DNA of 64,000 nucleotides from a virus. This document shows, one piece after another, positions 6,485 to 39,172 of this stretch (position 1 is the first letter of the stretch; every line of letters starts with the position of its first letter). Below the pieces are notes generated by a model, which saw only the letters and a list, made by a program, of their open reading frames with translations, was not told the DNA's origin and made no database searches. Location: the IMG/VR virus record IMGVR_UViG_3300009183_006007, positions 1 through 64,000 of that record. The stretch is one strand, 5' to 3'. Position numbers and translations under genes: made by a program.

Positions 6485-8011
6485 ATGAACTATATTCAAA
6501 AATATAATGAGTGGGAGAATATTTCAGAAGCTACTTTAGATGATACTAAAGAGTTAGTTGATTATGATATATCAAGAAAGGGTAGAGTTAAAATTAACTT
6601 ACTTGGTATTAGTGAGAATATAAAGTTAACTACATGTAGTTCAGTTCCCGCTGACAATGAGTTTGTAATTCAAATTAGACCTAGTTCTTTTAGATTAATT
6701 GAATTCTCAAAATTTATTGAGTTGTATAAAATAGAAGACATGAATAATATATTTGTTTATGAAACAACTTCTACTAAATATCCATATGCTGTTGTTTTAA
6801 AAGGAACAAAAACAACTATGGTTAGACAATCTAATAGGGTTGGTGGTTCTGCCAGAGGTAACTATTTTAGAGAAACCGCTTTTATAATAACACTTGCTAT
6901 TAGACTTTGGGAAAATAAAGGAGTTAAAATTGATATTTATTCCAATAGAGGAAAAATCGAAATGAATTTTGCTAAAGGAGTTGCAACTATGTCTAAGAAG
7001 GAAAGAGCTGAATTTAGAAATCAATATGATGAGTTTGTTCATGATAAGAAAATATATGATGCTATGGTTACTCAAATAGATTCTTTGATTCAATATCTTG
7101 GTGTTTCGATTTTTAATATTAAATCGGTGGTTAAGAACTCAGTAGATTTACTTATTAATAGAATAGCTAATGATTTATTAGATGATGAAGAAGACTTACA
7201 TAGTGATATTGTTAAAAGTCAACCTCAAAATATAGCTGATTTTAATACCTTTGAAATTCCTAAAGGTGTAACCTTATCAAAATGGAATCCAAGTGATATC
7301 TGGATTTTATATAAAGACGCCGATTGGACTTTAATCGAACCAAAAGGATATGATGATAATGAAATAGAGAGTCTTGAAGAATTAAATGTTTACTTACATA
7401 ATTGTATTGTAAATAAAGAAGGTATAGTTGGTGTTTCACTTAAACAACAAATAACTAATGCTGGTGGTTTATATGAAATAAATTTAGATGAGAATAGAAA
7501 GTTCTCACACGATTATAAAGGATATTATGTTAAAAACACTATAAAGTCTTCTAAGATTAAATTCTCATATGAGAAACTTGGTGGTGTAATCGGTGGTGGT
7601 GAAATAGATGTTAGAACATTTGACACTGATACTAAATCTCCAATATCTGCTGAGGTTAAAGGTTCTACAGCTTCTCAACATATGAGTGGTAAAGCCGGTT
7701 CTTATATAAAGTTTGTTATGCCTGTTGATAAATATAAAGTATTAGAATTTATCAGAAAGAATAATGTGGATGATATTAAGGAATTTGTAGAAAATAACTA
7801 TACATTCACTAAATCAGATTTGAAAGTTATTTTTGAAAAAGACTTAGAAAGTCCAAAAAATGGTCAAAGTAACTCTAGAATGCAAGCTATTATATTTACT
7901 GATTGGTTAGAAAGTTTATCTAAAAAAACTAGAAATGAAGTAGTTTCTGGTATAATTAGATATGCAAAGTCAGAATCTAATTGGTCAGCTCCTCACTTAT
8001 TGTTAAAATAA
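6485..8011 (+). CDS. Hypothetical protein with N-terminal capsid-targeting-like tag; possible PD-(D/E)xK nuclease fold
   Basis: Starts MNYIQKYNEW; KWNPSDIW...GVSLKQ. Confidence 0.55.
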   Translation: MNYIQKYNEWENISEATLDDTKELVDYDISRKGRVKINLLGISENIKLTTCSSVPADNEFVIQIRPSSFRLIEFSKFIELYKIEDMNNIFVYETTSTKYPYAVVLKGTKTTMVRQSNRVGGSARGNYFRETAFIITLAIRLWENKGVKIDIYSNRGKIEMNFAKGVATMSKKERAEFRNQYDEFVHDKKIYDAMVTQIDSLIQYLGVSIFNIKSVVKNSVDLLINRIANDLLDDEEDLHSDIVKSQPQNIADFNTFEIPKGVTLSKWNPSDIWILYKDADWTLIEPKGYDDNEIESLEELNVYLHNCIVNKEGIVGVSLKQQITNAGGLYEINLDENRKFSHDYKGYYVKNTIKSSKIKFSYEKLGGVIGGGEIDVRTFDTDTKSPISAEVKGSTASQHMSGKAGSYIKFVMPVDKYKVLEFIRKNNVDDIKEFVENNYTFTKSDLKVIFEKDLESPKNGQSNSRMQAIIFTDWLESLSKKTRNEVVSGIIRYAKSESNWSAPHLLLK

Positions 8012-8035
8012 ACTTTATTTCACTTTGTTATATAA
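8010..8035 (+). promoter_or_regulatory. Putative middle promoter AAACTT-N15-TATAA
   Basis: Recurrent bipartite motif. Confidence 0.55.
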
Positions 8036-8040
8036 TTAAC

Positions 8041-8403
8041 ATGGCAAAGAAAATGAAATCACCTACAACTACAACATCAAGTAATGGTACATTAACAACC
8101 AGTAATAGTGGTGCTACATTAACAACAAGTTATAACGGTAATATAAACTATGTTACAACTGGATATTCATCTATTTCAACAATATATCATATTTTAGGAG
8201 AAGACTTTGAGACTAGTAATTATTTAGATGGAACAACTGCTGTTATGATATCCACTTTAAATGTTTTAGGAAGACCATTCTATGAAGAATTGAAAAAGAA
8301 TAAGATATCTTTTCCACAAGAAATGGATGAATTTATTCAACAAAGACTTAAAGTTTTAGAAAGAGATCTTAAAATAGAATCTATCATAGAAAACAATTCA
8401 TAA
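8041..8403 (+). CDS. Hypothetical protein with C-terminal tag (start likely 8041, not 7981)
   Basis: ATG follows promoter motif; ends ERDLKIESIIENNS. Confidence 0.65.
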   Translation: MAKKMKSPTTTTSSNGTLTTSNSGATLTTSYNGNINYVTTGYSSISTIYHILGEDFETSNYLDGTTAVMISTLNVLGRPFYEELKKNKISFPQEMDEFIQQRLKVLERDLKIESIIENNS

Positions 8404-8418
8404 TAAATCAAAAGTTGG

Positions 8419-8445
8419 AAACTTATAGTATTATTTTATCTATAA
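8419..8445 (+). promoter_or_regulatory. Putative middle promoter AAACTT-N16-TATAA
   Basis: Recurrent bipartite motif. Confidence 0.6.
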
Positions 8446-8466
8446 AATTAAAATTAAGAAAATCCA

Positions 8467-9441: not shown

Positions 9442-9442
9442 T

Positions 9443-9841: not shown

Positions 9842-9851
9842 AACAAACAAT

Positions 9852-10415: not shown

Positions 10416-10417
10416 AA

Positions 10418-10606
10418 TTGGATAACAAGGATATATATAAGAAGATATTAGAAGCTTCTAATATCATTGCTCAATCAAGTAGAAGGTCTTCAGCTAATTA
10501 TATGGTAACATCACCTGATGTTGCTGATATGATACAAGATATTTATAATCAAAAAAAGTCTCGTTGGAGAAAAGAAAAGATTAAAAAACTATTTCCTGAT
10601 GAGTAA
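10418..10606 (+). CDS. Mini-protein: major-capsid-like segment plus C-terminal tag
   Basis: KILEASNIIAQSSRRSSANYMVTSPDVA; ends WRKEKIKKLFPDE; TTG start. Confidence 0.6.
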   Translation: MDNKDIYKKILEASNIIAQSSRRSSANYMVTSPDVADMIQDIYNQKKSRWRKEKIKKLFPDE

Positions 10607-12534: not shown

Positions 12535-12539
12535 AAAAT

Positions 12540-13417: not shown

Positions 13418-13670
13418 AGTTTAATACTTGTTTTAACTTCCAATCTCTTTCTTTAGAATTATCTTCAAATTGAAGTTCCTCTTCAGCAAATATAATAGGA
13501 ATTAAATGTTGCTTTATTTGATATTGACTTGGATATAAATCTAACTCAACTCTATAAACATTTAAGTCTTGTGTTGATTCCTTACTAGTAACTATACTAC
13601 CTACTCGATACTTAAGATCATCATAAGCTCTTGTTACAATAACAACCCGATCACCCTTTGAGAACTTTAA
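13416..13670 (-). CDS. KOW/SH3-like small protein with C-terminal tag; start uncertain
   Basis: KFSKGDRVVI...ERDWKLKQVLN; no ATG at the expected start. Confidence 0.45.
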   Translation of the reverse strand, partial: LKFSKGDRVVIVTRAYDDLKYRVGSIVTSKESTQDLNVYRVELDLYPSQYQIKQHLIPIIFAEEELQFEDNSKERDWKLKQVLN

Positions 13671-14577
13671 ATTGTTGTCTGTATCTGATAACTGCCAGGT
13701 CTTTCGCTTTCGCTTCAATTTCCGTGTCAAAGTCAAGACCAAATGTTTTAATTTCTTCATAAATATAATCTGCATGTGCTGTTTGTTTTCCTGAATTATC
13801 TTCTAATGTTTTTGGTGAACTCATATGAGTCATTGGTTGAATATCACCCCAAGTAGAACAAGCAAGTTTTAATGCCTCTTCTTGTGAGATATCTTTTGGT
13901 CCATAATTATGATGATGAAAATCATGAGTTATAGGTATTCCAATTTTCTTATAAATTAAATCATATAAAATCTTTGTTGAATATTGATTAGGACCATCGT
14001 CATTTTCAACAACCAATCTTCTACGACAAGACTCACTTAAATTAAAAAATTGTTTACAGAATCTGTCAGCAGCTTCTTCTCTTGTTGGTTTGGTGGTATT
14101 AACATGTATGTTAATTGGATAATAACGGGTCTGATCTAAACACATTAAATCCATTATTTGAGCATGTTTATCTAATTCATCAATAGCATTTTTAACAACA
14201 ATTGGATTTTCACTAGCTGGAATACAGAAGTGTGTTGGGTGAAAAGAAAGTCTTATTTTTTTAGACTTTGAATAATCACCTATTGACTTTAACTTATCTG
14301 ATATAAGTTTGAAGTTTGGTAAATCTTCTAATTTATAAAAACCAATACATGGAAACATGTCACTTGACATTCTATAAACAAAAATATTATTTTTTACATT
14401 CCATTGAAGTATTTTTTCAAGATCATTTATATTCTGTATGGCTAACTCAGATACATATCCAAGACCTTTAGTCTCAAATGTCTTTTTAGTCATTCCTCTA
14501 TTGACTGTTATTTGGTCTTTTTTCTTTTTACCCTCGTTTATCGAGATATTAATACAACAATATCCTATATTACCCAT
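13651..14577 (-). CDS. uvsE: UV damage endonuclease
   Basis: IGYCCIN, YRMSS, RLSFHP, INIH, LVVENDD, DFHHH, AHADY, EAKAKD. Confidence 0.92.
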   Translation of the reverse strand: MGNIGYCCINISINEGKKKKDQITVNRGMTKKTFETKGLGYVSELAIQNINDLEKILQWNVKNNIFVYRMSSDMFPCIGFYKLEDLPNFKLISDKLKSIGDYSKSKKIRLSFHPTHFCIPASENPIVVKNAIDELDKHAQIMDLMCLDQTRYYPINIHVNTTKPTREEAADRFCKQFFNLSESCRRRLVVENDDGPNQYSTKILYDLIYKKIGIPITHDFHHHNYGPKDISQEEALKLACSTWGDIQPMTHMSSPKTLEDNSGKQTAHADYIYEEIKTFGLDFDTEIEAKAKDLAVIRYRQQFKVLKG

Positions 14578-14582
14578 AAATA

Positions 14583-14738: not shown

Positions 14739-14746
14739 AATATATA
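14739..14746 (+). promoter_or_regulatory. Putative late promoter AATATATA
   Basis: 4 nt before the ATG at 14751. Confidence 0.65.
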
Positions 14747-14750: not shown

Positions 14751-15317
14751 ATGAGAATTATAAAATACACAGAGTTTATTAAAGAAGAATTTACAGACAC
14801 TCCAGAATCATATATTGAGGTAGCTCTTAAACAAATTAAGAAGAAAATCGACAAGATGTTTGAATTTCAAGAGGCTATTGATACTGAACCATCTGATGAA
14901 GAAGAAGGTGATAAAGAAATCAGAAAAGCTAAATTAGATAGTAAGAAGAAGTCAGAGATGTCATTCAAAGATTTGGGTGTGAGACTTGAAAGTTCGGAGA
15001 TATCAAAATATTCTAAACTTCATGACTCTTTAACTATTAAATTTTCAGATGATGAAGCAACTTATAGCTTACTTATATCAATTGACTTAAAAGATGCTCT
15101 ACCAAAAGATCCAAATGGTGACTATTCATATGAAGACATTGAGAAATGTTATATGAAACTAAAGAAATATAATCTTGATACATTTGAAGTTATTGGTCAA
15201 ATAACTAAAAATGTTGAGATTAAGAAAATTGACGAAGATTTCCTAATTAGTTTAAAAATTGATATGGATGATAAATTCGGAGATGATGAAGAATTTGAAA
15301 TTGAAACCAATGATTAA
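14751..15317 (+). CDS. Acidic hypothetical protein with N-terminal tag
   Basis: Starts MRIIKYTEFIKEE. Confidence 0.7.
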   Translation: MRIIKYTEFIKEEFTDTPESYIEVALKQIKKKIDKMFEFQEAIDTEPSDEEEGDKEIRKAKLDSKKKSEMSFKDLGVRLESSEISKYSKLHDSLTIKFSDDEATYSLLISIDLKDALPKDPNGDYSYEDIEKCYMKLKKYNLDTFEVIGQITKNVEIKKIDEDFLISLKIDMDDKFGDDEEFEIETND

Positions 15318-17307: not shown

Positions 17308-17315
17308 AATATATA
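17308..17315 (+). promoter_or_regulatory. Putative late promoter AATATATA
   Basis: Recurrent motif. Confidence 0.6.
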
Positions 17316-17338: not shown

Positions 17339-18598
17339 ATGTCAATATTAAGATATAATGATTACATCTCGGAGAAAATGGCTTATGAGATGATACTTGA
17401 GTCAAAAGTTATCTATTCAAAGAAGTTTATTAATTTACTTAGTAAAATGAAAACGAATAAATTAGCAAAAGAATTATTAAACCTTTATTCAAAAGATGTT
17501 GATGCTCTAACACAAAATTATATCGATATTACTGATGAAAAAGATGCTGTGAGTTTTACACCTGATAGAAAGGTTCAAGAATTAACTAAAGATAAACCAG
17601 AAACTTGGTCTGTTACGGATTCTCAAAGATACTTAACTAAAAGTGATAGAAATAATAAAATATTTGAAGCTTTAGGATATGATAAAGAAAAATATGAATG
17701 TTGGGCACCAGAAGTAGATACAGTTGGATTAATACTTTCTGAGACAGTTAGTAGATCATCTGGTAAAATATATGTAATGTTTCAAGAGTATAAAGCAACA
17801 GATGAACCTAGAATCGGTGTTATTAACAAAGATGCTTTGGAATTATCAGATGCTGAAGATATGAGAATTTGGTCAACATCAAGAAATCCAATTAAAATAG
17901 GTAGACTAGTAAGAGCTATTTTAAATGCCGCTAAAATTACATTTGTTGATAAAGACATTGAAGATTTTACAAATACATATAAAGCAACTTATGACTTTGC
18001 TAAAGATGCTCTTAGACAATTTGATATTGTTAAAGGTGATAAGATTGCTTATTGGTATAATCAAGATAATTATGTAGATGGTGGTGGTTCTTTAAATAAC
18101 TCTTGTATGGCTGATGTAGATACTGATGATTATTTTGATATTTATACACAAAATCCTCAAGTATCACTTGTTATTCTTTATGGAGATACTGGTGTTATAG
18201 ATGGTGATAAGTATAGTGCCGATCTTATTAAAGGAAGAGCAATTCTTTGGGATTGTAAATTAGATGGTCAACCCGTTAAATTTATGGATAGAGTATATAC
18301 TACTCACGATTCTGATGTTGAGTTATTCAAACAATTTGCTGAAAAGAATGGATGGTGGTATAAAAAATCACAATCTATGGAACCAAGTGAAAAATTAACA
18401 AATGGTTCAGATGTTAAAAAAGGAGTAATAATTGCTAATCTTAATGATACTGACTTTAATTATTATCCTTATTGTGACACTATGTGTTATATTGATAGTG
18501 AATCAGGTGTTGTTTCAAATACATATTGGGATGATTCTAATAAACTTTTAAGAGATACTGGAGGTGAGTATGAAGATTCATATGATATGGAAGATTAA
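17339..18598 (+). CDS. Hypothetical protein with N-terminal tag
   Basis: Starts MSILRYNDYISE; SLNNSCM...GRAILW...FMDRVY. Confidence 0.7.
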   Translation: MSILRYNDYISEKMAYEMILESKVIYSKKFINLLSKMKTNKLAKELLNLYSKDVDALTQNYIDITDEKDAVSFTPDRKVQELTKDKPETWSVTDSQRYLTKSDRNNKIFEALGYDKEKYECWAPEVDTVGLILSETVSRSSGKIYVMFQEYKATDEPRIGVINKDALELSDAEDMRIWSTSRNPIKIGRLVRAILNAAKITFVDKDIEDFTNTYKATYDFAKDALRQFDIVKGDKIAYWYNQDNYVDGGGSLNNSCMADVDTDDYFDIYTQNPQVSLVILYGDTGVIDGDKYSADLIKGRAILWDCKLDGQPVKFMDRVYTTHDSDVELFKQFAEKNGWWYKKSQSMEPSEKLTNGSDVKKGVIIANLNDTDFNYYPYCDTMCYIDSESGVVSNTYWDDSNKLLRDTGGEYEDSYDMED

Positions 18599-18754: not shown

Positions 18755-20647
18755 TTACTTAACTTCTTCATAAGATGTATCTTCAACGTCTCCACCGCCA
18801 TTACCATTGTCAGTGCTTTCGTTAGAACTTTGTGGTTCTTCTTGAGATTGTTGATATAATCTTGTACTAATTGTTTGCCAAGTTTCATTTAACTTATTAG
18901 ATGTTTCATCAATTGATGTTACATCTTTTTCTGAGTGAGCCTTTTTCAAAGCATCTAAGTCAGTATTAAGTAAAGACTTATCTTCATCAGTCAACTTATC
19001 AGAAAATTCTTTGATTTGTTTTTCTGTTTGGAAGATAAGATTATCAGCCATGTTTACTTTGTCAACCAATTCTCTTTCGAGACGATCAGACTCAGCATTT
19101 AACTCAGCCTCAGCTTTCATTTTTTCAATTTCCTCTTTAGATAGTTGAGAACCACCTTCAATTCGGATTTTGTTTTCTTTACCACTAGCTTTATCTTTAG
19201 CAGATACAGATAGAATACCATTAGCATCAATATCTAATGTTACTTCTACTTGAGGAATACCTCTCGGAGCTGGCATGATACCATCAAGATGGAATCTACC
19301 TAACGAACGGTTATCCTTAGCCATTGGTCTTTCACCTTGTAGAACGTGAATTTCTACAGATGGTTGATTGTCAGAAGCTGTTGAGAACGTTTCAGACTTA
19401 CGGGTCGGAATTGTTGTATTAGCTTCAATCAACTTAGTCATCACACTACCCATAGTCTCAATACCTAAAGATAGAGGTGTTACATCAAGAAGAAGAACAT
19501 CAGTAATACCACCACTCAAAACAGCTCCTTGAATAGCCGCTCCTAAAGCAACAACTTCATCAGGGTTAACAGATTTGTTTGGTTTCTTACCTAAGTACTT
19601 CTCAATTGCTTCTTGAATAGAAGGTATTCTTGTAGAACCACCAACAAGAATTACTTCATCAATGTCAGATGGTTTAAGTCCTGCATTCTTCAAAGCACTT
19701 TTAGCACAAGCGATAGCTCTATCAACAAGACTTGAGGTCATTTGATCAAACTTAGCTTTAGTTAATTGTTTAACGAAGTGTAAAGGAATACCATCTTTAG
19801 CAGTGATGTATGGAAGATTGATTTCTGATTGAGAAGTTGAAGATAATTCAATTTTCGCTTTCTCAGCAGCTTCTTTCAAACGTTGAAGACCCATAGCATC
19901 TTTTGAAAGATCCATTCCGTGTTCAGATTTGAATTCATCAACCATCCAAGTAATGATTGCGTTATCAAAGTCGTCACCACCTAAGTGAGTATCACCATCA
20001 GTAGATTTAACTTCAAATACACCATCACCAATTTCTAGAACTGATACATCATGAGTACCACCACCACAATCGAATACTAAGATTTTAGAATCTGTATTCT
20101 TTTTATCTAACCCGTAAGCTAGAGCTGCCGCAGTTGGCTCATTAATGATACGCTCAACTTTCAAACCAGCGATTTCACCAGCTTCAATAGTTGCAGTTCT
20201 TTCAGCGTCCCCGAAGTAAGCAGGAACCGTAATAACAGCTCTTTTTACTTCATATCCTAAATAGTCTTCAGCAGTTTTCTTCATTTTCTGAAGAATCATT
20301 GCTGAGATTTCTTGTGGAGTGAAAGTTCTATCATCGATTTTAACACCTGGTACATTTTTACCAGCTTTAACAACTTCATAAGGAACTCTCGTTACCTCAT
20401 CAGTGCAAGCTGAAAAATCTTTACCAATGAACCTCTTAATAGAGTAAACAGTATTTTTTGGATTGGTAACTGCTTGTCTTTTAGCGGGGTCTCCAATTTT
20501 TCTATCTTTGTCGGTAAATCCGACAACTGAAGGAGTTGTTCTTTTCCCTTCAGAGTTGGTGATTACGATTGGTTCACCACCTTCAACTACAGCTACACAT
20601 GAGTTTGTAGTTCCTAAGTCAATTCCAATAATTACGTCTTTTGCCAT
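18755..20647 (-). CDS. dnaK: Chaperone DnaK
   Basis: [31 protein letters not shown]. Confidence 0.97.
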
Positions 20648-20700: not shown

Positions 20701-20779
20701 ATTATGTGACATTTTGTCATATATTTTTTCTTAACATAAGATTATATTTTTTGATATTAAAAAAGTTTATATATAACTA

Positions 20780-21049
20780 ATGAAATTTATAAAAGAATGG
20801 TCTGAATGGAATCCTACATTAAATAAGGAAGTTTTAGATTTTGTTGAAACCAATAAAGTGAACTTAAGACATCTTTGGAAAGATGATATGAGTGAAGAAG
20901 AAAATATGAAATTCTTAATAGATTACTTTACTGAATACCCAGATGAAATGACTTCTTCTATAAAGACTGACAAAATTAAATCAGTAACACCTATATCCGG
21001 TATTAAAAATGCGGTTCCGACTCTTCAAAATATTGGAGGTGTTTGTTAA
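20780..21049 (+). CDS. Hypothetical protein with divergent N-terminal tag
   Basis: MKFIKEWSEW; TATATATA at 20768. Confidence 0.6.
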   Translation: MKFIKEWSEWNPTLNKEVLDFVETNKVNLRHLWKDDMSEEENMKFLIDYFTEYPDEMTSSIKTDKIKSVTPISGIKNAVPTLQNIGGVC

Positions 21050-21312
21050 ATATTAACTAAACTTTTTTCATTCCATTTTTCTAATGGAATTGAAATTAAA
21101 GATTTTGTAAAATGCTCGTGTGATTTTCTTTGTTCTTCGGTTCCTCTATTAAAGTTCCAAAATTTAGCATCATCAGATGAGCATTGTAAAGTAACTGATC
21201 TTCCACCACCATCTGTTCTATATAGTCTAGAACCACAAATACTACATTTATAATTTGTATTCATTTCATTTAGTTGGTTAAAAAATGATTCATATTTAGT
21301 TAAGTGCTTCAT
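21046..21312 (-). CDS. Small Zn-ribbon-like protein with N-terminal tag
   Basis: MKHLTKYESF; CSICG; TATATATA at 21319-21326. Confidence 0.65.
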   Translation of the reverse strand: MKHLTKYESFFNQLNEMNTNYKCSICGSRLYRTDGGGRSVTLQCSSDDAKFWNFNRGTEEQRKSHEHFTKSLISIPLEKWNEKSLVNI

Positions 21313-21338
21313 TATTACTATATATAAAATTAAAATAG

Positions 21339-22675: not shown

Positions 22676-22683
22676 TATATATT
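22676..22683 (-). promoter_or_regulatory. Putative late promoter AATATATA
   Basis: 5 nt upstream of the RNA ligase ATG. Confidence 0.6.
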
Positions 22684-23977: not shown

Positions 23978-24162
23978 GAAAGTGAGTTAATGATAGCTTC
24001 ATATTGCTTATCACTCAAAATCTTAATTTGTCTATTACCAAAATCAACCTTAGTAAGATACTTACTTGTTTTCAATTGTTTCCGAATAGATAGTACAAAA
24101 GAATTATCACCTTTGTAAGCTCTAATTTGTTTGTTTAGTTCATTTTTTTCTTCGATAGTCAT
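23974..24162 (-). CDS. Hypothetical protein
   Basis: TATATTTG at 24177-24184 upstream. Confidence 0.6.
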   Translation of the reverse strand: MTIEEKNELNKQIRAYKGDNSFVLSIRKQLKTSKYLTKVDFGNRQIKILSDKQYEAIINSLS

Positions 24163-26480: not shown

Positions 26481-27548
26481 ATGAGTAAAGATTATTACAA
26501 AGTACTAGGCGTAGATAAAAACGCTTCAGATGATGAAATAAAAAAAGCATATAGAAAAAAAGCTATGGAATTTCATCCAGACAAAAATCCGGATAATCCA
26601 GAAGCAGAGTCTAAATTTAAAGAAGCTGCTGAAGCATATGATACATTATCATCACCGGATAAAAAAGCTAGTTATGATAGATACGGAACAACTGGTAACC
26701 CATTTGGTGGAGGTGGAAATCCATTTGGTGGAGGTGGATTTAATATGGAAGATATTTTTTCACAATTTGGTGATGTATTTGGAAATTCATTTAATCAAAG
26801 ATATGGTGGTGGACAAAGACCACAAAGTAAAGGATCTAATCTAAGAATAAAAGTTAGTTTAACTATTGATGAGATTCTAAAAGGAGCAGTTAAGAAATTA
26901 AAATATAAGAGACAAGATAAATGTAATTCTTGTAATGGTGTAGGTGGAACTGATCCAAGAACTTGTATTCCTTGTAATGGTTCTGGTCAAAGAACAATTG
27001 TTCAAAACACACCATTCGGTCAAATCAGACAAGTCGCTACTTGTCCAGATTGTTCTGGTAGTGGTAAAGTTGTTGCTGTGAAATGTAACTCTTGTAGAGG
27101 TGAAGGAGTAAGTATTAAAGAACAAGTAGTTGATGTTGAAATCCCCAAAGGAGTTTCTAATGGAATGCAATTAACAATGCAGGGATTTGGTAACTTTATT
27201 AAAAATGGATCGGCTGGTGACTTACAAATTATAATAGAAGAAATAATTGACCACTCTTTTAGAAGAGAAAATAATAATATAGTTGTGGAAAAAACTATAT
27301 CTGTTATAGATGCTATTATTGGATCAAATATTAAAGTCTCAACACCACATGGTGAGATACCAATTGCTATTGAGCCAGGAACAGAACACGGAAAGGTTTA
27401 TAGAGTATCAGGTAAAGGAATTCCAGATATTAATTATGGACTTGGTGATCTTTATGTTAAAATCAGTATTAAAATTCCAAAGAAAATTGAGTTGGATGAA
27501 AAATACACTCTTGAGAAATTAAAATCTTCGAAAAACTTTTCAGTATAA
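26481..27548 (+). CDS. dnaJ: Chaperone DnaJ
   Basis: J domain HPD, G/F region, four CxxCxGxG. Confidence 0.96.
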
Positions 27549-27803: not shown

Positions 27804-27845
27804 CAAAGATATAAAAAATAAGTAGATTCTCCAAATTAATATATA
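27804..27845. promoter_or_regulatory. Back-to-back TATCTTTG (minus) and AATATATA (plus)
   Basis: 27804-11 and 27838-45. Confidence 0.6.
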
Positions 27846-27864: not shown

Positions 27865-28671
27865 ATGGCATTAAATGATATAAATGGATATGGTGACACT
27901 TATGTTCCCTACCAAGGGGGATATACGATAGAAGAAATGGTGGATCTTGTTCAAAATGAATTAACAATTTCTTGTGCATTACCAAAGTCTTTACCTGATG
28001 CAAATATCAGACAGATAATTGAAACAAGAGCTTTACCTTGGTTCTATAGATCTTATCAATTCGCCGTTCAAAAAATGTATTTCTTAATAAAGAAAGATGC
28101 TTTCTTCTCAGAAGAATTTACAAAATATAATTATGTTAATGTTCCGTGTGAGATTCAATCAGTTGTTTATCTTTATGAGGTTAGAGGAGATAGTTTATTT
28201 CAATTAGGTATTAACACTCCTAACTTATCAGTAAACTTAGGTGTTACCAATCAACCTTATTTATCATCTTATGTTACAACTATTGGTGAATTAGGTGTTT
28301 ATAAAACGGTATTAGACTCGATGTCTGATATGTTAAATCAGTTAAATAAATATACATTAAAGTATCAGTTTAATCAATTGAACCATAGAATTCATATCTT
28401 AACTAATGTTCAATATGATGTTATTATGGAAGCTTATGCTAATATTCCTGCTGAAAATCTATTCAAAGATGATTTATTCTTTAAGTATGTAACCGGATAT
28501 GCTAAACAACAATTAGGTAATATGATGGGAAGGTACGATTTTCAATTACCGGGTGGTATTAAAATACAGGCTGCTGACTTAGTTTCACAAGGTAAAGAAG
28601 AAGTAAAAGAAGTTGAAGAGGAAATTAAGGGTCAATCGAATTCAACTTGGTTCATTATGGTGAAAAAATAA
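27865..28671 (+). CDS. Neck protein (T4 gp13-like)
   Basis: YQFNQLNHRI; KYVTGYAKQQLG...QLPGGIKI...GKEE resembles the gp13 C-terminus. Confidence 0.7.
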   Translation: MALNDINGYGDTYVPYQGGYTIEEMVDLVQNELTISCALPKSLPDANIRQIIETRALPWFYRSYQFAVQKMYFLIKKDAFFSEEFTKYNYVNVPCEIQSVVYLYEVRGDSLFQLGINTPNLSVNLGVTNQPYLSSYVTTIGELGVYKTVLDSMSDMLNQLNKYTLKYQFNQLNHRIHILTNVQYDVIMEAYANIPAENLFKDDLFFKYVTGYAKQQLGNMMGRYDFQLPGGIKIQAADLVSQGKEEVKEVEEEIKGQSNSTWFIMVKK

Positions 28672-28678: not shown

Positions 28679-29074
28679 ATGAAACACTTAAAAAAATTTA
28701 ACGAATCATTAAAAGAACCAATTGATGTTGAATCTGATATTATCGAGTTCAAAGAAAAATTGGGTAAAGCTTATCATAACTTCTTTTTAAAAATGTATGT
28801 CTATTCACCTGAAGAAGAATATGCTAAAGCAATGAATAATATAGAACACCTTATAGTATCTAATCCAACTATGACTGATGATTGGGATGTTTGGGAAGTT
28901 TATGGAACAGATGATTATGGTAGAAATTCTGGAACAATTATGAATGTTAGAGCTGTTTCTAAATTACATGCTAAAATTAAAGTAGCTACTATTAAAAATA
29001 ATTTAGAAATATTAGCTACTGGTTACTACTCAGCATCTAAGACTTCTAAATCCGATTTCCATAGGTATATATAG
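28679..29074 (+). CDS. Hypothetical protein with N-terminal tag
   Basis: Starts MKHLKKFNES. Confidence 0.7.
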   Translation: MKHLKKFNESLKEPIDVESDIIEFKEKLGKAYHNFFLKMYVYSPEEEYAKAMNNIEHLIVSNPTMTDDWDVWEVYGTDDYGRNSGTIMNVRAVSKLHAKIKVATIKNNLEILATGYYSASKTSKSDFHRYI

Positions 29075-32651: not shown

Positions 32652-32655
32652 ATTT

Positions 32656-32663
32656 AATATATA
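32656..32663 (+). promoter_or_regulatory. Putative late promoter AATATATA
   Basis: Heads the 32668-34840 tagged-gene run. Confidence 0.65.
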
Positions 32664-32667
32664 TGTT

Positions 32668-33186
32668 ATGAAAATTATTAGGACACGATTGAAACCTTTT
32701 GGAGGGTCAGCTGAATTCATTTCTATGAAAGGAAAGATTAAATCCATCATTGAAAAAAACAAAGGAGATGTATTTCATTTTGTAATGGAAGATAGTGGTG
32801 TTAAAACCGTAAAAGAATTTGGACCGGAAAATATTAATCCAGAATTAGTAGGTCAATCTATTATTATCTGTGATGGACCTTGGATGGCACAATTTAATGA
32901 TGATGGTACAATTGATGTTGTAATTGGGACTAATGAATCATTACCTCGTCAACAATCTGTTGATCAACTTAAAAGAGTTATGAAGATGTCAGCAAAAACT
33001 GATATTGGTAATAGAATATCTGATATGAATAAACAAGGAGCTAATGTTCAATATATTCAGAATCCAATTGATTCAGGAATTGAATCATATGAAGACTTTG
33101 AAAAAAAGAATAAATCATTTGTACCTTCTTGGAATCTTAAACATTTATTAAGTCCATTTTCAGGAGAATCAAAAAAGAAGAAATAG
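32668..33186 (+). CDS. Hypothetical protein
   Basis: Tag-like segments near the C-terminus (IESYEDFE, LKHLL). Confidence 0.65.
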   Translation: MKIIRTRLKPFGGSAEFISMKGKIKSIIEKNKGDVFHFVMEDSGVKTVKEFGPENINPELVGQSIIICDGPWMAQFNDDGTIDVVIGTNESLPRQQSVDQLKRVMKMSAKTDIGNRISDMNKQGANVQYIQNPIDSGIESYEDFEKKNKSFVPSWNLKHLLSPFSGESKKKK

Positions 33187-33207
33187 AAAAAAAGAAATAA
33201 AAAAAAT

Positions 33208-33924
33208 ATGAAACATTTAAAAACTTATAATCAAATGAATGAGGAAATATCCTTTAAAGGATTAGCCCCAATTTTAACATCTTTAATTATGACACTAAGT
33301 TCTTCAGATGTTGCTGCATTTGGTGGTGCATTTGGTGGACATGGTGGATTTGGTGGACATGGATTTGGTAATCCATATGCTAATAGAGGAGGTGGACAAA
33401 TTGGCAACGGAGAAGGAAACGGACAAATTGGTATCGGACAAATTAGTGATCCCGGATACAAAAGACAGGCATCTAGTATAATTCAATCTCAATCAAGAAA
33501 TATAATTAATGATTTGGAAAAGATGAAATCAGTAACTGATGATCCTCAATTACTATCCTTAATTAGCTCAATTAGTGAGTTATCAAATTGGCAATATTCT
33601 GAGGGTGTTGAACCGATTAATTTGGTTCTTGGTAAGTTGAGAGGTTATATTAAATCACATGATGTAAATGATGATGTAATAAATAGCACTTTAGATCATT
33701 TATCAAAGGGTGATATTGATAATATTAAATCTGACTATAACAGATTGTTGACAGAATATGATGATATTATCGGACATGGTACTGGTAATGCTAGATCTGG
33801 AAATGTTAGTGGATTTGTTACTGCTATAGATGTTTTAAATATTATTTTATGCTTGTTATTATCAGTTTTAGTATTAGTTGTGGGTAAAGGATTCTGGGAT
33901 TTATGGAGAACTAAATCCTATTAA
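33208..33924 (+). CDS. Gly-rich membrane protein with N-terminal tag
   Basis: MKHLKTYNQMNEE; hydrophobic segments at both ends. Confidence 0.7.
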   Translation: MKHLKTYNQMNEEISFKGLAPILTSLIMTLSSSDVAAFGGAFGGHGGFGGHGFGNPYANRGGGQIGNGEGNGQIGIGQISDPGYKRQASSIIQSQSRNIINDLEKMKSVTDDPQLLSLISSISELSNWQYSEGVEPINLVLGKLRGYIKSHDVNDDVINSTLDHLSKGDIDNIKSDYNRLLTEYDDIIGHGTGNARSGNVSGFVTAIDVLNIILCLLLSVLVLVVGKGFWDLWRTKSY

Positions 33925-33937
33925 AAAATAAATAATT

Positions 33938-34546
33938 ATGAAATACTTAAAAAGATTTAACGAAAGTAATAGTACACCATTTAGAAGTAAACTTCTTTAT
34001 AAAGATTCTAATATTGGTAAATATGAACTATATGTTGATGGTTCTACTGGATGGGGAATAATATTCCCTAATGGTTATATGGAAATTGAAGAGGGTCCAC
34101 ACGAGTCTGTTGGTTTTATGAATGGTGAAATAAATGGAGTTAGTATAGGAGCAAGAGGAAATGATGTACCTAGAATACCTGGAAAATATTGGGAAGGTAA
34201 TATGTCAAGTGATGAATTGTCAAGATTTTTTGATAGGGTTATTAGCAAATACAATAATATCACTGAATCATCTGATGATTATAAAGATTTAAGTATGTAT
34301 AATCCATACTATAGTGATAAAGATGAAAGTGATAAAGATAATCTATTGAAATGGTATATGAAAGGATTTAATGATGAGTTAAGAGGAACAACCACAATTG
34401 AATCAGACAATAAAATAGATATGGTTGCTTATAACTTAGGAGCACAACACGCCATAATTGGTGATGATGTTTCTAGTATTGATAATCTATCTGATGAAGA
34501 AATAATATCTATGATTGAAGATATTTATAATAAAAATCAAAAATAA
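33938..34546 (+). CDS. Hypothetical protein with N-terminal tag
   Basis: MKYLKRFNES; internal ISKYNNITES. Confidence 0.7.
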   Translation: MKYLKRFNESNSTPFRSKLLYKDSNIGKYELYVDGSTGWGIIFPNGYMEIEEGPHESVGFMNGEINGVSIGARGNDVPRIPGKYWEGNMSSDELSRFFDRVISKYNNITESSDDYKDLSMYNPYYSDKDESDKDNLLKWYMKGFNDELRGTTTIESDNKIDMVAYNLGAQHAIIGDDVSSIDNLSDEEIISMIEDIYNKNQK

Positions 34547-34549
34547 GAT

Positions 34550-34840
34550 ATGAAATATTTAAAAACATTTGAATCATATGATAATGATATCGCTACTCAG
34601 ATAGCTGAAGACCTTTTACCAAAACTTCAAAAGCTTAGACAAGAGAAAGGTAAGTTTACCGTAGGCATGTTTGATAACTATATGGAAGAAAGAGGTGGTA
34701 ATATGAAACTAACTGATGAAATTATGAGTATACTTGTAAGTATGGGATTTGATTTTGATCCATATGATGATGAAGATGATAATGAATATGGTGATGATGA
34801 TTTAGATGATCATCCACTTTTTTCATATAATAAGAATTAA
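34550..34840 (+). CDS. Acidic hypothetical protein with N-terminal tag
   Basis: MKYLKTFES. Confidence 0.7.
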   Translation: MKYLKTFESYDNDIATQIAEDLLPKLQKLRQEKGKFTVGMFDNYMEERGGNMKLTDEIMSILVSMGFDFDPYDDEDDNEYGDDDLDDHPLFSYNKN

Positions 34841-34870
34841 AAAAGAGAGACCAATTGGTCTCTCTTTTTT
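34839..34870. terminator. Bidirectional terminator
   Basis: AAAAAAGAGAGACC-AATT-GGTCTCTCTTTTTT. Confidence 0.85.
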
Positions 34871-35042
34871 ATTTTAATACCATATACTTAACACCGTCAA
34901 CAATCTTCACTTTATACTTTCCAGTATCTTCTGATTTGACTTTCTTCTCAGCTCTTTTGGTAGCCTTAGTTCCTTTGGTGCTTTTATCTACTTCACCAAA
35001 TTTATTCTTTAATACCTCTCTCATTGAAAATCTCTCAGTCAT
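34869..35042 (-). CDS. Unlisted 57-aa basic protein
   Basis: Own translation MTERFSMREVLKNKFGEVDKSTKGTKATKRAEKKVKSEDTGKYKVKIVDGVKYMVLK; TATATTTG at 35067-74; terminator after it. Confidence 0.65.
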   Translation of the reverse strand: MTERFSMREVLKNKFGEVDKSTKGTKATKRAEKKVKSEDTGKYKVKIVDGVKYMVLK

Positions 35043-35066
35043 ATTTTTTAGTTTTTGTTTGTCTTA

Positions 35067-35108
35067 CAAATATAAGGAATCTTTTTGAATAACAATATTA
35101 AATATATA
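35067..35108. promoter_or_regulatory. Back-to-back TATATTTG (minus) and AATATATA (plus)
   Basis: 35067-74 and 35101-08. Confidence 0.6.
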
Positions 35109-35112
35109 CAAT

Positions 35113-35553
35113 ATGAAATATCTTAAAGGATTTAACGAATCAATGGAAGAACAAATCTATAAACAAGTTCTTGATTCTATAAAAGATTGTTTTCAAGAGT
35201 TTGAGGATAATGGTTGGTATTGGATAGCGGATTCTTATTCAGGTACTTATCCAGGTATATCTATTTGGCAAAATCCAAACTTTAATTGTAGAATGATGAA
35301 TAAAGAAGAATCTGATCCAAGAAACTGGACTCTAAATAAAAATCCTTACGAAAAAAACATTGATATTACTGGTGAAATTAAATCAGATGGTTCTATTAAT
35401 TGGGAAATGAATGAAGACGAAACAGATAGTGAAGATGGTAAAGATTTTTTAGTTGCTGTAAAAAGATTACATGATGAAACTGGACTTGATTTCAATTTCT
35501 CATATAATAATAGAGGTGGTGAAAGAAGAATAATAATACAAGGTAGAATATGA
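35113..35553 (+). CDS. Hypothetical protein with N-terminal tag
   Basis: MKYLKGFNES. Confidence 0.7.
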   Translation: MKYLKGFNESMEEQIYKQVLDSIKDCFQEFEDNGWYWIADSYSGTYPGISIWQNPNFNCRMMNKEESDPRNWTLNKNPYEKNIDITGEIKSDGSINWEMNEDETDSEDGKDFLVAVKRLHDETGLDFNFSYNNRGGERRIIIQGRI

Positions 35554-35948
35554 AAAGACTAAGAAAATTTAATGAGAGTGTATCTCAAATAGATTATGAT
35601 TATGTATATAGTTGTTTTGCTGAACTTATAGATGATAATAAAGCTGAGATAGAATTGATGCAAGGTGAATATGTTAAAGTACCATACATAACTATTAGAT
35701 TAAAAACTATTCCTAAAATAGATCCTAGAACTACTAGTCAAGCAAAACCTATTGAAAATAAAAAGTCCTCTATCTATAATTATATTACAGGACATAATAG
35801 TAATAATGAGTTATTACAAGAATTAGAAGTTAGTATAAATAGATTATCGGAAGAATATCCTGATTATAAATTACAATTTAATGATTGGGGTACTTCCATA
35901 TTTATGGAAATATTTAAAAATACAGAAGAAGAAAAATATCCATTTTAA
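35550..35948 (+). CDS. Hypothetical protein with N-terminal tag
   Basis: MKRLRKFNES. Confidence 0.7.
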   Translation: MKRLRKFNESVSQIDYDYVYSCFAELIDDNKAEIELMQGEYVKVPYITIRLKTIPKIDPRTTSQAKPIENKKSSIYNYITGHNSNNELLQELEVSINRLSEEYPDYKLQFNDWGTSIFMEIFKNTEEEKYPF

Positions 35949-36487
35949 TGAAAATAAAGAATTATATACAATTTATAAAAGAATCATCTGGATATCAATA
36001 CGGATGTGTAATGGTTGAAGTACCAGTAAGTAATTGGAATGAGATAACTAGTTATATCGATCCAGAAGATGTTTATACAGGAGGTGATGATACTCACGGA
36101 ATTCAAGAAAATCCACATGTTACTATATTATATGGTTTACATAAAGAAGTAACATCAGAGATGGTTAAATCAGTATTTGAAGGGTTTACAAAAGACATTA
36201 ATATAGAAGTTAATGGTATTGACATCTTTGAAAATAAAGACTATGATGTTGTCAAGTTTAATGTTAATCCTGATGGTGCTCTTCAAGAACTACATGATAA
36301 ACTTTCTGAGTTTCCTAATTCAAATGATTTTCCGGATTACAAACCACATATAACAATTTCGTATGTTAAAAGTGGAACAGGTAAAAAATATGTTAAACCA
36401 GATTATAAATATGAAGTTAAGAATGTTGATAAGATAACTTATTCAATGGTTGATGGTAATAAAATAAAATTCAAATATACTAAATAA
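35948..36487 (+). CDS. 2H phosphoesterase, T4 gp57B/Acb1-like, with N-terminal tag
   Basis: PHVTILYG and YKPHITISY (two HxT motifs); starts MKIKNYIQFIKES. Confidence 0.78.
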   Translation: MKIKNYIQFIKESSGYQYGCVMVEVPVSNWNEITSYIDPEDVYTGGDDTHGIQENPHVTILYGLHKEVTSEMVKSVFEGFTKDINIEVNGIDIFENKDYDVVKFNVNPDGALQELHDKLSEFPNSNDFPDYKPHITISYVKSGTGKKYVKPDYKYEVKNVDKITYSMVDGNKIKFKYTK

Positions 36488-37743
36488 TGAAACATCTAAC
36501 TCCATATAAAATATTTGAATCGATGTTTAAGTTAGACACTATAGCTAATCAGTTTATTACTGATATGTCTAAAGTTTATAATCTTAGATTTGGAGAATCA
36601 TTTGATAAAAATAAAGCCAATTGTGCTTGGTTTACTGGTGAGTTTTACAAATGGGCAAAATCAAAAGATTTGAATGTTAAAGTAGTTTACTTTGATTCTA
36701 ATATTGAAGCTCATATTGCTCCTATGATAGATGATAAAGTTATAGATTTTGCTATTAAACAATTTACTAAAAATCCTAATGATAATTATTTAATACTTAT
36801 ACCAGAAGACTATAAGAAATATGGATATGATAAGTTTGAAATATATGATGAGATGCCTAAATTAGAAACTATTTTTTCGGCTGATAAAATTCAAGAATCT
36901 AATCAAATGTATTATAGTATCTATGATTGGTTTGAAGATCTAAAAAGATATCAATGGTCAAAAAATCAAAAGTCAATGGTAAATGAATCATCACTAAATA
37001 AATGGTGTGATTATTTTGTTGGTGATGGTTATTGGGGAAAGATTAAAGATTTAGTTGATAAAATATTTATTTCTTTATCTAAAGTTGATACTGAGTATAT
37101 AAATGACAGAATGTATGATGTTTATGATGAGATACCTTCTGGTAAAGAAAAATGGACAATGTGTTGTGTTGCTTATGGTGGTTATGAAAATCATGATAAA
37201 CCAAATAAAGTAAAATACAATGGTGCGATTTATATTAAAAATCCTAAAGACGGTGATAAATTAGATATAATCATACACATTCTAAAAGAAATAGTTAGTC
37301 CAACATTAACAATTGGTTACCCTTCTTATGTAATAAGACAAAGTGATGAACAATTTTATGTTACTGATAAGAAATGGCAATGTAAAAACTTTAACATCGA
37401 TGACTATGGTATACAAGATGGATTTGAATATAAAACAGATGATAGAAGAGGTAAAGGTAATGTATATTCATCCGATATTAAAAATAAAAAAGATTATTCT
37501 ATTGATAAGATATTAGATATGTATAAACCTTGTATCGCTATTAACATAGGAGGATATCAAGATGCACACTCAACTGGTAAAATGAATATGAGAAAATTAG
37601 AGTCCGATATAGATGAAGTTTTACCTTCTATTTTACCAACCTTAGATTATGAAGAAGTTATATTTGATTCTTCAAGAGGTGATAGAAGATTTGATGATGA
37701 TATAGATATTTATGAATACACAATTAAAATATTACTAAAATGA
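36487..37743 (+). CDS. Two-module hypothetical protein with N-terminal tag
   Basis: MKHLTPYKIFES; internal IQES and VNES. Confidence 0.7.
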   Translation: MKHLTPYKIFESMFKLDTIANQFITDMSKVYNLRFGESFDKNKANCAWFTGEFYKWAKSKDLNVKVVYFDSNIEAHIAPMIDDKVIDFAIKQFTKNPNDNYLILIPEDYKKYGYDKFEIYDEMPKLETIFSADKIQESNQMYYSIYDWFEDLKRYQWSKNQKSMVNESSLNKWCDYFVGDGYWGKIKDLVDKIFISLSKVDTEYINDRMYDVYDEIPSGKEKWTMCCVAYGGYENHDKPNKVKYNGAIYIKNPKDGDKLDIIIHILKEIVSPTLTIGYPSYVIRQSDEQFYVTDKKWQCKNFNIDDYGIQDGFEYKTDDRRGKGNVYSSDIKNKKDYSIDKILDMYKPCIAINIGGYQDAHSTGKMNMRKLESDIDEVLPSILPTLDYEEVIFDSSRGDRRFDDDIDIYEYTIKILLK

Positions 37744-38237
37744 AAATAAAAACATTCGAATCTTTTAATGATGAGTTCTCAGGTGAATGGGATGGACCGA
37801 GATGGCAACAACATTTTAAAAGGTTGAAAGAAGATCCTGATTATAAGATTAGATGGATAGAACACCGAGATTCACAAGTTAAGGAATATTGGATGAGTCT
37901 TAAACCATTTGAAAAGGAATCTGATGTGCCTGATTTACCAAATCCATTAAACGACTTTTATAAACAAAGAATTATAGAACTAGGTGGTATTCCTAAATCC
38001 GAGTTAGAAGATGGTCAATGGTATTATGGTAACTTTAGAAATTCAGACTTAGGTAAGTGGGATTCTGAGAAACAAGAATTTGGACATTGGAGATATAAAT
38101 TTGGACACAGATGGGACACTTGTAATCATTTCGAAGATGATAATAGATATGCACTTTTTGTTCCATTAAGAAAAGCTAACAATGAAGAGTTAGAATCAAT
38201 TAAAAAAATAGAAAATGAAGCATCTAAAAACATATAA
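37740..38237 (+). CDS. Hypothetical protein with N-terminal tag
   Basis: MKIKTFESFN. Confidence 0.7.
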   Translation: MKIKTFESFNDEFSGEWDGPRWQQHFKRLKEDPDYKIRWIEHRDSQVKEYWMSLKPFEKESDVPDLPNPLNDFYKQRIIELGGIPKSELEDGQWYYGNFRNSDLGKWDSEKQEFGHWRYKFGHRWDTCNHFEDDNRYALFVPLRKANNEELESIKKIENEASKNI

Positions 38238-38484
38238 AATATTTGAGTGGGTTGAAGTTAGTAATAAACTTGAGAAGAAATTTGAATTTAAGGATTTCTT
38301 ACAAGCTCTTAAATTCATAAATGAACTTTCTAAAATTTGTGAAGAGCAAAATCATCACCCCGAAATAAATTGGATTTATAATAAAGTGAAACTTACTTTA
38401 TCTACACACGATGCTGGTGATATTGTTACAAAAAAAGATTTAAAATTATCAAAGTCAATTGATGAAATACTTAAAAACATATAA
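38215..38484 (+). CDS. Pterin-4a-carbinolamine dehydratase-like protein with N-terminal tag
   Basis: FEFKDF..A, NHHPEI, YNKV..TLSTHDAG; starts MKHLKTYKIFE. Confidence 0.85.
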   Translation: MKHLKTYKIFEWVEVSNKLEKKFEFKDFLQALKFINELSKICEEQNHHPEINWIYNKVKLTLSTHDAGDIVTKKDLKLSKSIDEILKNI

Positions 38485-39172
38485 ACTATTCGAATCAGTT
38501 ATTACTGAATTTGAATTTCCTACAGAATTGGATATTCAAGAACTATTCTATGATCTAACAGATGAAGATACAAACTCTAAATGTAAATTATATTCATCAG
38601 GTTATCAGTTTTTTACAACAGATAATATAACAAGATCTATTAGAAGTCAATTATTCTCCGATATGAGTTTTGAAGAAAACTGGATAAATAAAGAATGTGA
38701 AGATACTCAAGATACTTGGAAAAATATGTTTATTGATTTATCTAAACCTGTATCAAATGATATGATTAAATTGGCTGTTAGAAATTATAATGATGTTTAT
38801 TTTTTAGAGGTTGAAGAATCAAAAAATAGTGCTGGTAAAAGTTATCTTGAAAGATTACAAGAAAATATATTAAATGATATTATTCCGGCTTATCCAATTA
38901 TTTATTTAAATCTAGGTCTTTTTCATCCAGATAAATTACCAGTAGTTGTAGAGTGTTTACAAAGATTATATGAAGTAACTGGGTTTAGACCAACTTCATC
39001 AGTTTGGGCTGAAGATTATGTAGATGAGGAAACAGGAGATCTTGTTACTTTTTATGGAGCTGACTTACAACTTTATAAAGTAAATGATATAGAATATCAG
39101 AATCTATGTAAGATTGTTGGAAGAATAAATCCAAATAATAAAACACAAGAAGTAACTAAACATTTTTTATGA
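38462..39172 (+). CDS. Hypothetical protein with N-terminal tag
   Basis: MKYLKTYKLFES. Confidence 0.7.
   Translation: MKYLKTYKLFESVITEFEFPTELDIQELFYDLTDEDTNSKCKLYSSGYQFFTTDNITRSIRSQLFSDMSFEENWINKECEDTQDTWKNMFIDLSKPVSNDMIKLAVRNYNDVYFLEVEESKNSAGKSYLERLQENILNDIIPAYPIIYLNLGLFHPDKLPVVVECLQRLYEVTGFRPTSSVWAEDYVDEETGDLVTFYGADLQLYKVNDIEYQNLCKIVGRINPNNKTQEVTKHFL

Follow-up and report, generated by a model that had tools for sequence, protein, structure and literature searches.

The DNA considered in this study is the first 64 kb of a viral contig of 75,196 bp (IMG/VR record IMGVR_UViG_3300009183_006007, positions 1 to 64,000), and I will refer to this whole stretch as the window. Its subject is a set of 17 genes whose products begin with variants of one short peptide; the peptide will be called the leader, the genes that have it tagged, and the protein behind it the cargo. 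The contig, for which CheckV gives a completeness of 17%, is a fragment of a huge uncultured Bacteroidota phage. Its closest DNA relatives are LR745206.1 (634,780 bp) and LR756502.1 (642,428 bp), with 72-73% identity over about 70% of a 5.1-kb probe, both of them curated genomes (634 and 642 kb) from the Mahaphage clade, whose predicted hosts are Bacteroidetes (Mahaphage paper). The window has a G+C content of 28% and encodes a T4-type gp32. LR745206 was taken throughout as the complete reference proteome, with 956 gene starts and 197,000 residues. Of the sampled words, 6% are present in a marine metatranscriptome, there only in the form of contigs, which says nothing on expression or habitat.

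Tagged genes of the window

The first-pass annotation of this DNA, made by a model from the letters, listed 17 N-termini that it likened to the capsid-targeting sequence (CTS) of phage T4. All 17 are present at the starts it gave, those at 21312 and 22670 being the starts of minus-strand genes. They are given here with one neighbor and with the two late-type promoter cores that head the longest runs; aa stands for amino acids, a slash marks the predicted cut, and ATATATA is the promoter motif considered below.

6485-8011, plus strand: tagged gene, 508 aa, MNYIQKYNE/W, with a possible second site ISE/A at residue 15; phrog_1462; ATATATA at 6472-6478, 6 nt before the ATG
14751-15317, plus strand: tagged gene, 188 aa, MRIIKYTEFIKE/E, a heptad of the scaffold and T4-CTS type; the LR745206 orthologue starts MKIRKYIEFITE; ATATATA at 14740-14746, 4 nt before the ATG
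17339-18598, plus strand: tagged gene, 419 aa, MSILRYNDYISE/K; ATATATA at 17309-17315
20780-21049, plus strand: tagged gene, 89 aa, MKFIKEWSE/W; ATATATA at 20769-20775, 4 nt before the ATG
21046-21312, minus strand: tagged gene, 88 aa, MKHLTKYE/S; ATATATA at 21319-21325
21339-22670, minus strand: tagged RNA ligase of the Rnl1 family, 443 aa, MKLFRYTEFIKE/S; Pfam RNA_lig_T4_1 at E 8.9e-20 over residues 76-275; ATATATA at 22676-22682
27865-28671, plus strand: neck-adaptor-like gene, matching the head-tail adaptor phrog_211; ATATATA at 27839-27845; directly upstream of the next gene
28679-29074, plus strand: tagged gene, 131 aa, MKHLKKFNE/S; second in the unit headed by the neck-adaptor-like gene
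32657-32663, plus strand: core of a late-type promoter, TAATATATA, at the head of the unit 32668-34840
33208-33924, plus strand: tagged gene, 238 aa, MKHLKTYNQMNE/E; belongs to the unit that has ATATATA at 32657-32663 at its head
33938-34546, plus strand: tagged gene, 202 aa, MKYLKRFNE/S
34550-34840, plus strand: tagged gene, 96 aa, MKYLKTFE/S; leader of the orthologue identical
35102-35108, plus strand: core of a late-type promoter at the head of the unit 35113-39306; with 4 nt between it and the ATG, the mRNA may be leaderless
35113-35553, plus strand: tagged gene, 146 aa, MKYLKGFNE/S; first of seven tagged genes in a row; ATATATA at 35102-35108
35550-35948, plus strand: tagged gene, 132 aa, MKRLRKFNE/S
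35948-36487, plus strand: tagged 2H phosphoesterase (Acb1-like), 179 aa, MKIKNYIQFIKE/S; Pfam 2_5_RNA_ligase2 at 9.2e-11, Acb1 at 2.1e-9
36487-37743, plus strand: tagged gene, 418 aa, MKHLTPYKIFE/S; the orthologue starts MKYLTKYKLFE
37740-38237, plus strand: tagged gene, 165 aa, MKIKTFE/S
38215-38484, plus strand: tagged pterin-4a-carbinolamine dehydratase (PCD), 89 aa, MKHLKTYKIFE/W; Pfam Pterin_4a at 9.4e-24 over residues 11-85
38462-39172, plus strand: tagged gene, 236 aa, MKYLKTYKLFE/S; leader of the LR745206 orthologue behind a TTG start

The leader is 7-13 residues long and takes the forms MK[YH]LKx[FY](N)E, ..YK[IL]FE and ..Yx[ED][FY]IxE, with Ser or Asn usually the next residue. It was counted by a strict pattern (M-[KRIN], an early basic and an aromatic residue, and phi-x-E or aromatic-E ending at residue 7-14, phi being hydrophobic), and 20-mers starting at internal Met served as controls, 290 from the window and 2895 from LR745206. 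The pattern matches 16 of the 17 listed leaders, the exception being the variant MSILRYNDYISE at 17339, whose orthologue reads MILLKYNEYITE. It stands at 16 of the 89 gene starts in the window as against 3 of the 290 controls (Fisher p = 1.4e-8), and at 133 of the 956 starts in LR745206 as against 20 of 2895 (p = 8e-62). More specific sub-motifs are confined to N-termini among the 197,000 residues of LR745206: [LIV][KR]x[FY]NE[SN] occurs 18 times there and never internally, [FY][KQN][ILV]FE[SN] 14 times and never internally. The leader counts are lower bounds, because gene calling took ATG starts only and several leaders lie behind a second Met or a TTG start. The figure of 17 proteins given by the first-pass annotation thus stands for the genes it listed and understates the scale, since about 14% of the proteome of the complete relative has the leader.

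Where a window gene and its LR745206 orthologue can be set side by side, the pattern is kept and its variable positions drift. The orthologue of the 2H phosphoesterase at 35948 starts MKLKKYKQFIKE and is fused to a DnaQ-like exonuclease. One apparent loss, in the orthologue at LR745206 446130, proved to be an artefact of the ATG-only calling, its leader lying behind a TTG start.

The leader as a portable peptide behind late-type promoters

That the leader is a portable peptide on varied cargo, as had been proposed, is borne out by LR745206, in which the 133 tagged proteins, stripped of their leaders, fall into 126 clusters, 119 of them singletons (BLASTP, E 1e-4), and by the membership of the cargo in unrelated Pfam families. 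Tagged genes often occur in tandem arrays, such as 33208-39172, and this is what paralogues of a single expanded family would produce, each inheriting its start from a common ancestor. Such a family is ruled out by the clustering, and the Pfam families met among the cargo are unrelated and have cellular homologues, so that the idea of an inherited start is hardly credible at all.

The cargo of known family in the window consists of the Rnl1 RNA ligase, the 2H/Acb1-like phosphoesterase and PCD. In LR745206 it includes a CCA-adding enzyme, a polynucleotide-kinase-like PHROG match, a Toprim protein (primase-like), NFACT-R and the DnaQ-like exonuclease fused to a 2H domain, and further NUDIX, GH16, an M15 cell-wall peptidase, an M42 peptidase and a MazE-like protein. 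Part of this cargo looks like counter-defence proteins. About 88% of the tagged cargo has no Pfam match, and in the ESM Atlas two cargos of unknown function found viral hypothetical clusters only. Transmembrane segments are rarer in tagged proteins than in others (2% vs 10%).

A comparison with cellular homologues, suggested by the first-pass annotation, came out as expected for PCD. Homology to solved structures begins at residue 8-12, which is the residue after the leader Glu (the predicted P1'), and a solved homologue of 80 residues aligns from its own residue 3; the cargo domain begins directly after the leader, which by these alignments is an add-on to its cargo. For the RNA ligase, the best 120 of 1468 matches are all 87-98% identical and all start M(K)KLF[RK]YxEF[IL]xES, and therefore untagged relatives were not reached. 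That public data hold 1468 relatives of this ligase shows the phage group to be common.

Two motifs recur upstream of genes in the window, a Bacteroidetes-type TAnnTTTG in front of small, mostly minus-strand genes, and TAATATATA followed by A, C or G. Each gene was assigned to the first motif met on walking up its tight same-strand unit. ATATATA was claimed to precede every listed gene or to stand at the head of its tight same-strand unit (a TAATATATA unit), and this proved right for 17 of 17, as compared to 33 of the 72 other window genes. In LR745206, such units hold 109 of the 133 tagged and 303 of the 823 untagged genes (p = 7e-23), and units of the host type, TAnnTTTG, hold 9 of the 133 tagged and 225 of the 823 untagged genes (p = 3e-8). 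The TAATATATA motif also lies upstream of the portal (phrog_213, 2.2e-59), protease and major capsid genes of LR745206 and of the neck-adaptor-like gene of the window, and a gp55-like late sigma factor is encoded (phrog_234). Early expression had been named beforehand as a sign against a role in the head; the tagged genes are found in late-type units, of the promoter class common to portal, protease and capsid genes, and going by promoter class the cargo would be made late, together with the head proteins.

The distance from motif to ATG in LR745206 has two modes, 3-6 nt and 17-25 nt, and is 4-6 nt for many genes of the window. Because the promoter core ends so few nucleotides before the ATG, a large class of late mRNAs is suggested to be leaderless. 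In a host that makes no use of Shine-Dalgarno sequences, the conserved start might then be a feature of the translation of such mRNAs, acting in initiation or as an early-elongation "ramp", and it fits this idea that the core lies 0-8 nt from the ATG in 43 of the 133 tagged genes of LR745206 as against 69 of the 823 untagged ones, and that the start, beginning M-K, is A/T-rich. Those 69 untagged genes nevertheless share the short distance, while operon-internal genes with no promoter nearby are tagged as well. The strongest conservation, moreover, falls at residues 7-12, in the specific pattern [FY]..E[SN], and the versions found in sister phages alter the first residues and keep the phi-x-E end. 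Most directly, codons at the conserved Lys, Leu, Phe, Asn, Glu and Ser positions follow genome-wide usage, including the choice between TCN and AGY for Ser (TCA, TCT, AGT, TCC and TCG all occur). Because codon choice follows the genome in this way, it is the peptide and not the RNA that is conserved, and a signal at the level of RNA is ruled out; a translational role I consider quite improbable.

The TAnnTTTG element, often in the form TATATTTGTA, was seen upstream of the genes at 13651-14577, 22918-23334, 23974-24162 and 34869-35042, all on the minus strand, and also of G000 68094 (minus strand). Genes of this class are largely untagged and are presumably early genes read by the host polymerase.

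Scaffold repeats, capsid propeptide and head protease

The major capsid protein of LR745206 belongs to the gp23 family (Pfam Gp23, 6.8e-26), and directly upstream of its gene is that of a protease-scaffold protein of 707 residues. The first 250 residues of this protein (protease domain, LR745206 198546 to about 199300) match phrog_207 at 2.6e-30, the same PHROG that T4 gp21 matches at 8.1e-76; the Pfam S77 match amounts to 20 bits, below the cut-off, and phmmer against the PDB gave no meaningful match. The remainder is made of about 10 tandem repeats of 14 residues, ENLDKNIAYSEY[IL]A, followed by an acidic tail, and Y-S-E-Y-[IL]-A-E/N recurs in it every two heptads. The scaffold repeat is conserved in four Mahaphages (LR745206, LR756502, LR756504 and LR756501).

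The leader, the scaffold repeats of these relatives and the T4 CTS have a rare motif in common, the heptad Y-x-[ED]-[FY]-[IL]-x-E. It is observed 7 times at N-termini in the LR745206 proteome where 0.4 are expected, and its other occurrences among the 197,000 residues are 10 in the scaffold, 3 in a mini-scaffold protein and only 4 in the rest of the proteome. The T4 sequence quoted by the first-pass annotation, MKTYQEFIAE, agrees with the T4 record and the paper, and the likeness it drew is upheld: leaders that read ..KYTEFIKE/S, ..YKIFE/S and ..FNE/S stand against MKTYQEFIAE/A, with a hydrophobic-x-Glu end as at gp21 sites. In the T4 record the sites are MKTYQEFIAE/A in IPII and IPIII, MLKEQLIAE/A and ..SIFES in gp22, MAKINELLRE/S in gp24 and ..SINEN in gp68. 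The propeptide of the capsid protein contains a Glu-Asn pair that is invariant in five Mahaphages and T4 (I-N-E/N, I-H-E/N, M-N-E/N and L-Y-E/N in the former, I-F-E/N in T4). One grammar is common to leaders, scaffold repeats, capsid propeptide and T4 sites alike: an aromatic or aliphatic residue, any residue, Glu, and a small polar residue. The composition-matched ratio of observed to expected phi-x-E motifs is 0.98 in tagged proteins and 1.11 in untagged ones, which hints weakly that tagged cargo avoids internal cut sites.

I consider it somewhat probable that the leader is a propeptide like the T4 CTS, which docks proteins on the core of the prohead and is cut off after its Glu, and that by this route a wide variety of proteins is probably taken into the phage head. 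The tagged proteins would be made late in infection, from the promoter class of the head genes. Because the leader resembles one 14-residue unit of the scaffold repeat, it is proposed to dock its protein on the scaffolding core. The gp21-family head protease would then cut after the leader Glu, as it presumably does in the scaffold repeats and in the propeptide of the capsid protein, and the mature cargo would stay in the head and enter the next cell with the DNA. A bolder form of this proposal is that the environmental Mahaphages (460-735 kb) pre-load about a hundred proteins, about one seventh of their coding repertoire, by means of a leader that resembles the scaffold repeat; this I put forward tentatively, its chances being somewhat short of even. 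The pre-loaded cargo would include RNA-repair enzymes, enzymes that degrade nucleotide signals, cell-wall hydrolases and many unknowns.

The leader might also be conceived as an address or handle for a target other than the capsid, be it another compartment made by the phage, the phage's own chaperones (to judge by eye, the window has Hsp70- and DnaJ-like genes), or the machinery of degradation, with the leader an N-terminal degron that limits lifetime. A leader that is specific to N-termini, conserved as a peptide and portable fits any peptide signal, and acidic cargo rich in enzymes suits action in the cytoplasm; its start, M-basic-hydrophobic-hydrophobic, also seems to resemble known N-motifs of ClpX. 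A handle of this sort leaves unexplained why leader and scaffold repeats share a rare heptad, why leader and capsid propeptide share the phi-x-E/S or phi-x-E/N end, why the likeness to the T4 CTS comes near to identity and why the link to the promoter class of head genes is so strong, and I regard it as unlikely, though not far-fetched.

A second possibility accepts the cut by the head protease and dispenses with delivery: the leader could keep enzymes inactive or tethered until late, or feed them to the protease for disposal. The evidence for a cleavage site is the same for both, and in T4 such core proteins as gp22, gp67 and gp68 are indeed expelled after cleavage and not delivered. Cargo of 10-140 kDa, once folded, would however be unable to leave a closed shell, T4 gp21 works inside the prohead, where CTS fusions remain, and a leader of 10 residues is an unlikely inhibitor of 126 unrelated folds. 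Processing without delivery therefore seems to me decidedly unlikely.

Several points weigh against a leader that loads proteins into the head. The genes for protease, scaffold and full capsid protein were not found on the 75-kb contig, and because of this the evidence on the head machinery is taken from relatives at about 72% DNA identity. The commonest short form of the leader (..TFE/S, ..KYE/S) has no hydrophobic residue at P3, and short motifs can converge. The short distance between promoter and ATG in a third of the tagged genes leaves room for a link to translation of leaderless mRNA. The small, highly basic, DNA-associated character of T4 internal proteins is not shared by the tagged cargo, which is acidic (median isoelectric point 4.9, with 14% above 8) and reaches lengths of 1283 aa. 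For some of it, PCD and the primase-like Toprim protein, there is no obvious use upon injection, and the loading of about 130-150 different proteins is of a scale without precedent. Finally, AlphaFold2 models of the RNA ligase (mean pLDDT, the model's per-residue confidence, of 41 from an alignment of 25 sequences) and of PCD (pLDDT 54 from a single sequence) are such that detachment of the leader from the fold is unreadable in them.

Some further observations are added here. The mini-scaffold protein of LR745206 (460435-460686, minus strand, 83 aa) has three 14-residue repeats of the scaffold type and ends in RKKKIKNLFN, a C-terminal tag that seems to carry fragments of capsid protein and scaffold. 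Two small open reading frames of the window, 10418-10606 (plus strand, 62 aa) and 45058-45282 (minus strand, 74 aa), match internal segments of T4-type major capsid proteins (Pfam Gp23 at 2.4e-6 and 1.7e-4, phrog_138 at 3e-5 and 2.3e-3, respectively), and similar small capsid matches are found in LR745206 at 255082-255243, 440206-440298 and 222134-222304. LR745206 has two paralogues of an M42-type (glutamyl) aminopeptidase, both on the plus strand, an untagged one at 202934-204292 and a tagged one at 401118-402320 (phrog_4191 at 7.3e-65 and 9.5e-71, respectively; Pfam M42 1.2e-74). The untagged paralogue lies just downstream of the capsid gene, with one small tagged gene between, and one may speculate that such aminopeptidases clear scaffold and leader peptides from the head. 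Judged by their N-termini, the window genes at 18755-20647 (minus strand) and 26481-27548 (plus strand) are by eye Hsp70/DnaK- and DnaJ-like, and a long run of genes at 45000-60000 (minus strand) resembles those for sugar-modifying enzymes and glycosyltransferases.

Distribution and comparison with known systems

The distribution of the leader was examined by matching MKx[phi][KR]x[FY]xE, written as a pattern at the DNA level, to a series of records; reversed-pattern controls gave 0-1 matches per strand. The numbers of matches are as follows.

LR745206: 33
LR756502: 30
LR756500: 10
IMG/VR relative of 59 kb: 5
LR756504: 2
T4: 1
PTm1: 1
LR756501: 0
Lak-B1: 0

Two of the sister phages have their own versions, strongly enriched at N-termini over the whole genome: MKYI[KL]EYE[ED]F[IL]xE[ANS] in LR756500, and MIKK[FY]K[LI]FE[SAN] and MIKK[FY]xx[FY]I[NK]E in LR756501. 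The versions differ in their first residues, and what they retain is the end, [FY]-[IL]-x-E or [IL]-F-E. A co-variation of leader and scaffold repeat across the sister phages was considered (in LR745206 and LR756500, P2 is Asn or Tyr in leader and capsid site alike), found suggestive at best and not counted as evidence. In 400 kb of Lak-B1 the leader motifs are essentially absent from N-termini (1 of 479 genes), and the cultured Tenacibaculum phage PTm1 showed no leader over its first 50 kb. The first 400 kb of Lak-B1 (MK250020.1) do contain, at positions such as 41466, 99336, 198324 and 232538, a small family starting MK..KKxLYESIMKS.SK and four tandem genes starting MK[VI]Q[VI]R[RH][SG]VFETNSSSTH, both of which look like paralogues rather than a portable tag.

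The paper on the Mahaphages does not mention the leader, none of the papers that full-text search found to use the phrase "capsid targeting sequence" is on huge uncultured phages, and no published description of the leader was found. What appears to be undescribed so far is the use of a single short leader for about 14% of a proteome, along with the clade-specific versions of that leader and its resemblance to a scaffold repeat fused to a protease. Most genes of huge phages are without known function, and if the leader marks proteins loaded into the head, those that are carried can be listed from sequence alone. The injected "starter proteome" of uncultivated huge phages would then be directly readable, many proteins likely to act in take-over and counter-defence would be pointed out, and there would be a partial explanation for the very large capsids of these phages. 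The T4 CTS would in that case be the reduced remnant of a general mechanism of loading by mimicry of the scaffold; the link between leader, CTS and scaffold repeat suggests that the CTS acts through assembly together with the scaffold. There could also be practical use for a tag that is short and transferable and would load large capsids.

Three known systems invite comparison. In phage P1, the N-terminal 30 residues of DarB, of the Dar anti-restriction system, suffice to send a reporter into the capsid. This parallels the role proposed for the leader, and the cargo of P1 is delivered against host defence, but the head of P1 is not of the T4 type, and its signal, which is known from a single protein and does not resemble the leader in sequence, is not described as a shared or cleaved tag.

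The giant phages phiKZ, 201phi2-1 and SPN3US have long N-terminal propeptides on ejection and inner-body proteins. These phages load many proteins (about 50) into the head, a gp21-like protease recognizes a short motif and cuts after its Glu, and targeting to the prohead is the supposed role of the propeptides. The propeptides are, however, 80-275 residues long and without common sequence, and about 8-19 proteins are processed, whereas in the present case a single short leader is reused on more than 100 proteins.

The closest parallel is with T4, in which the CTS is found on IPI, IPII and IPIII (and Alt) and is removed by the prohead protease gp21; its function is established, as is the diversity of the internal proteins of T-even phages but for their common CTS. 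In both cases a leader of about 10 residues stands on otherwise unrelated proteins (MKTYQEFIAE/A in T4, MKLFRYTEFIKE/S in the window) and has a hydrophobic-x-Glu end before a small residue, the short form ..TFE/S excepted. The phage group considered here has, as read from relatives, a gp21-family protease and a gp23-family capsid protein, its tagged genes lie in late-type units, and some of the cargo looks like counter-defence, as does IPI* of T4. The differences are ones of scale and of construction. The leader is found on about 14% of genes (at least 133 in the 635-kb LR745206) as compared to 3-4 proteins of T4, in several forms per genome and in other versions in sister phages. The internal proteins of T4 are small, basic and DNA-binding, whereas the cargo described here is acidic and includes enzymes. 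Finally, the scaffold, which in these relatives is fused to the protease, is built, unlike that of T4, of 14-residue repeats that resemble the leader itself.

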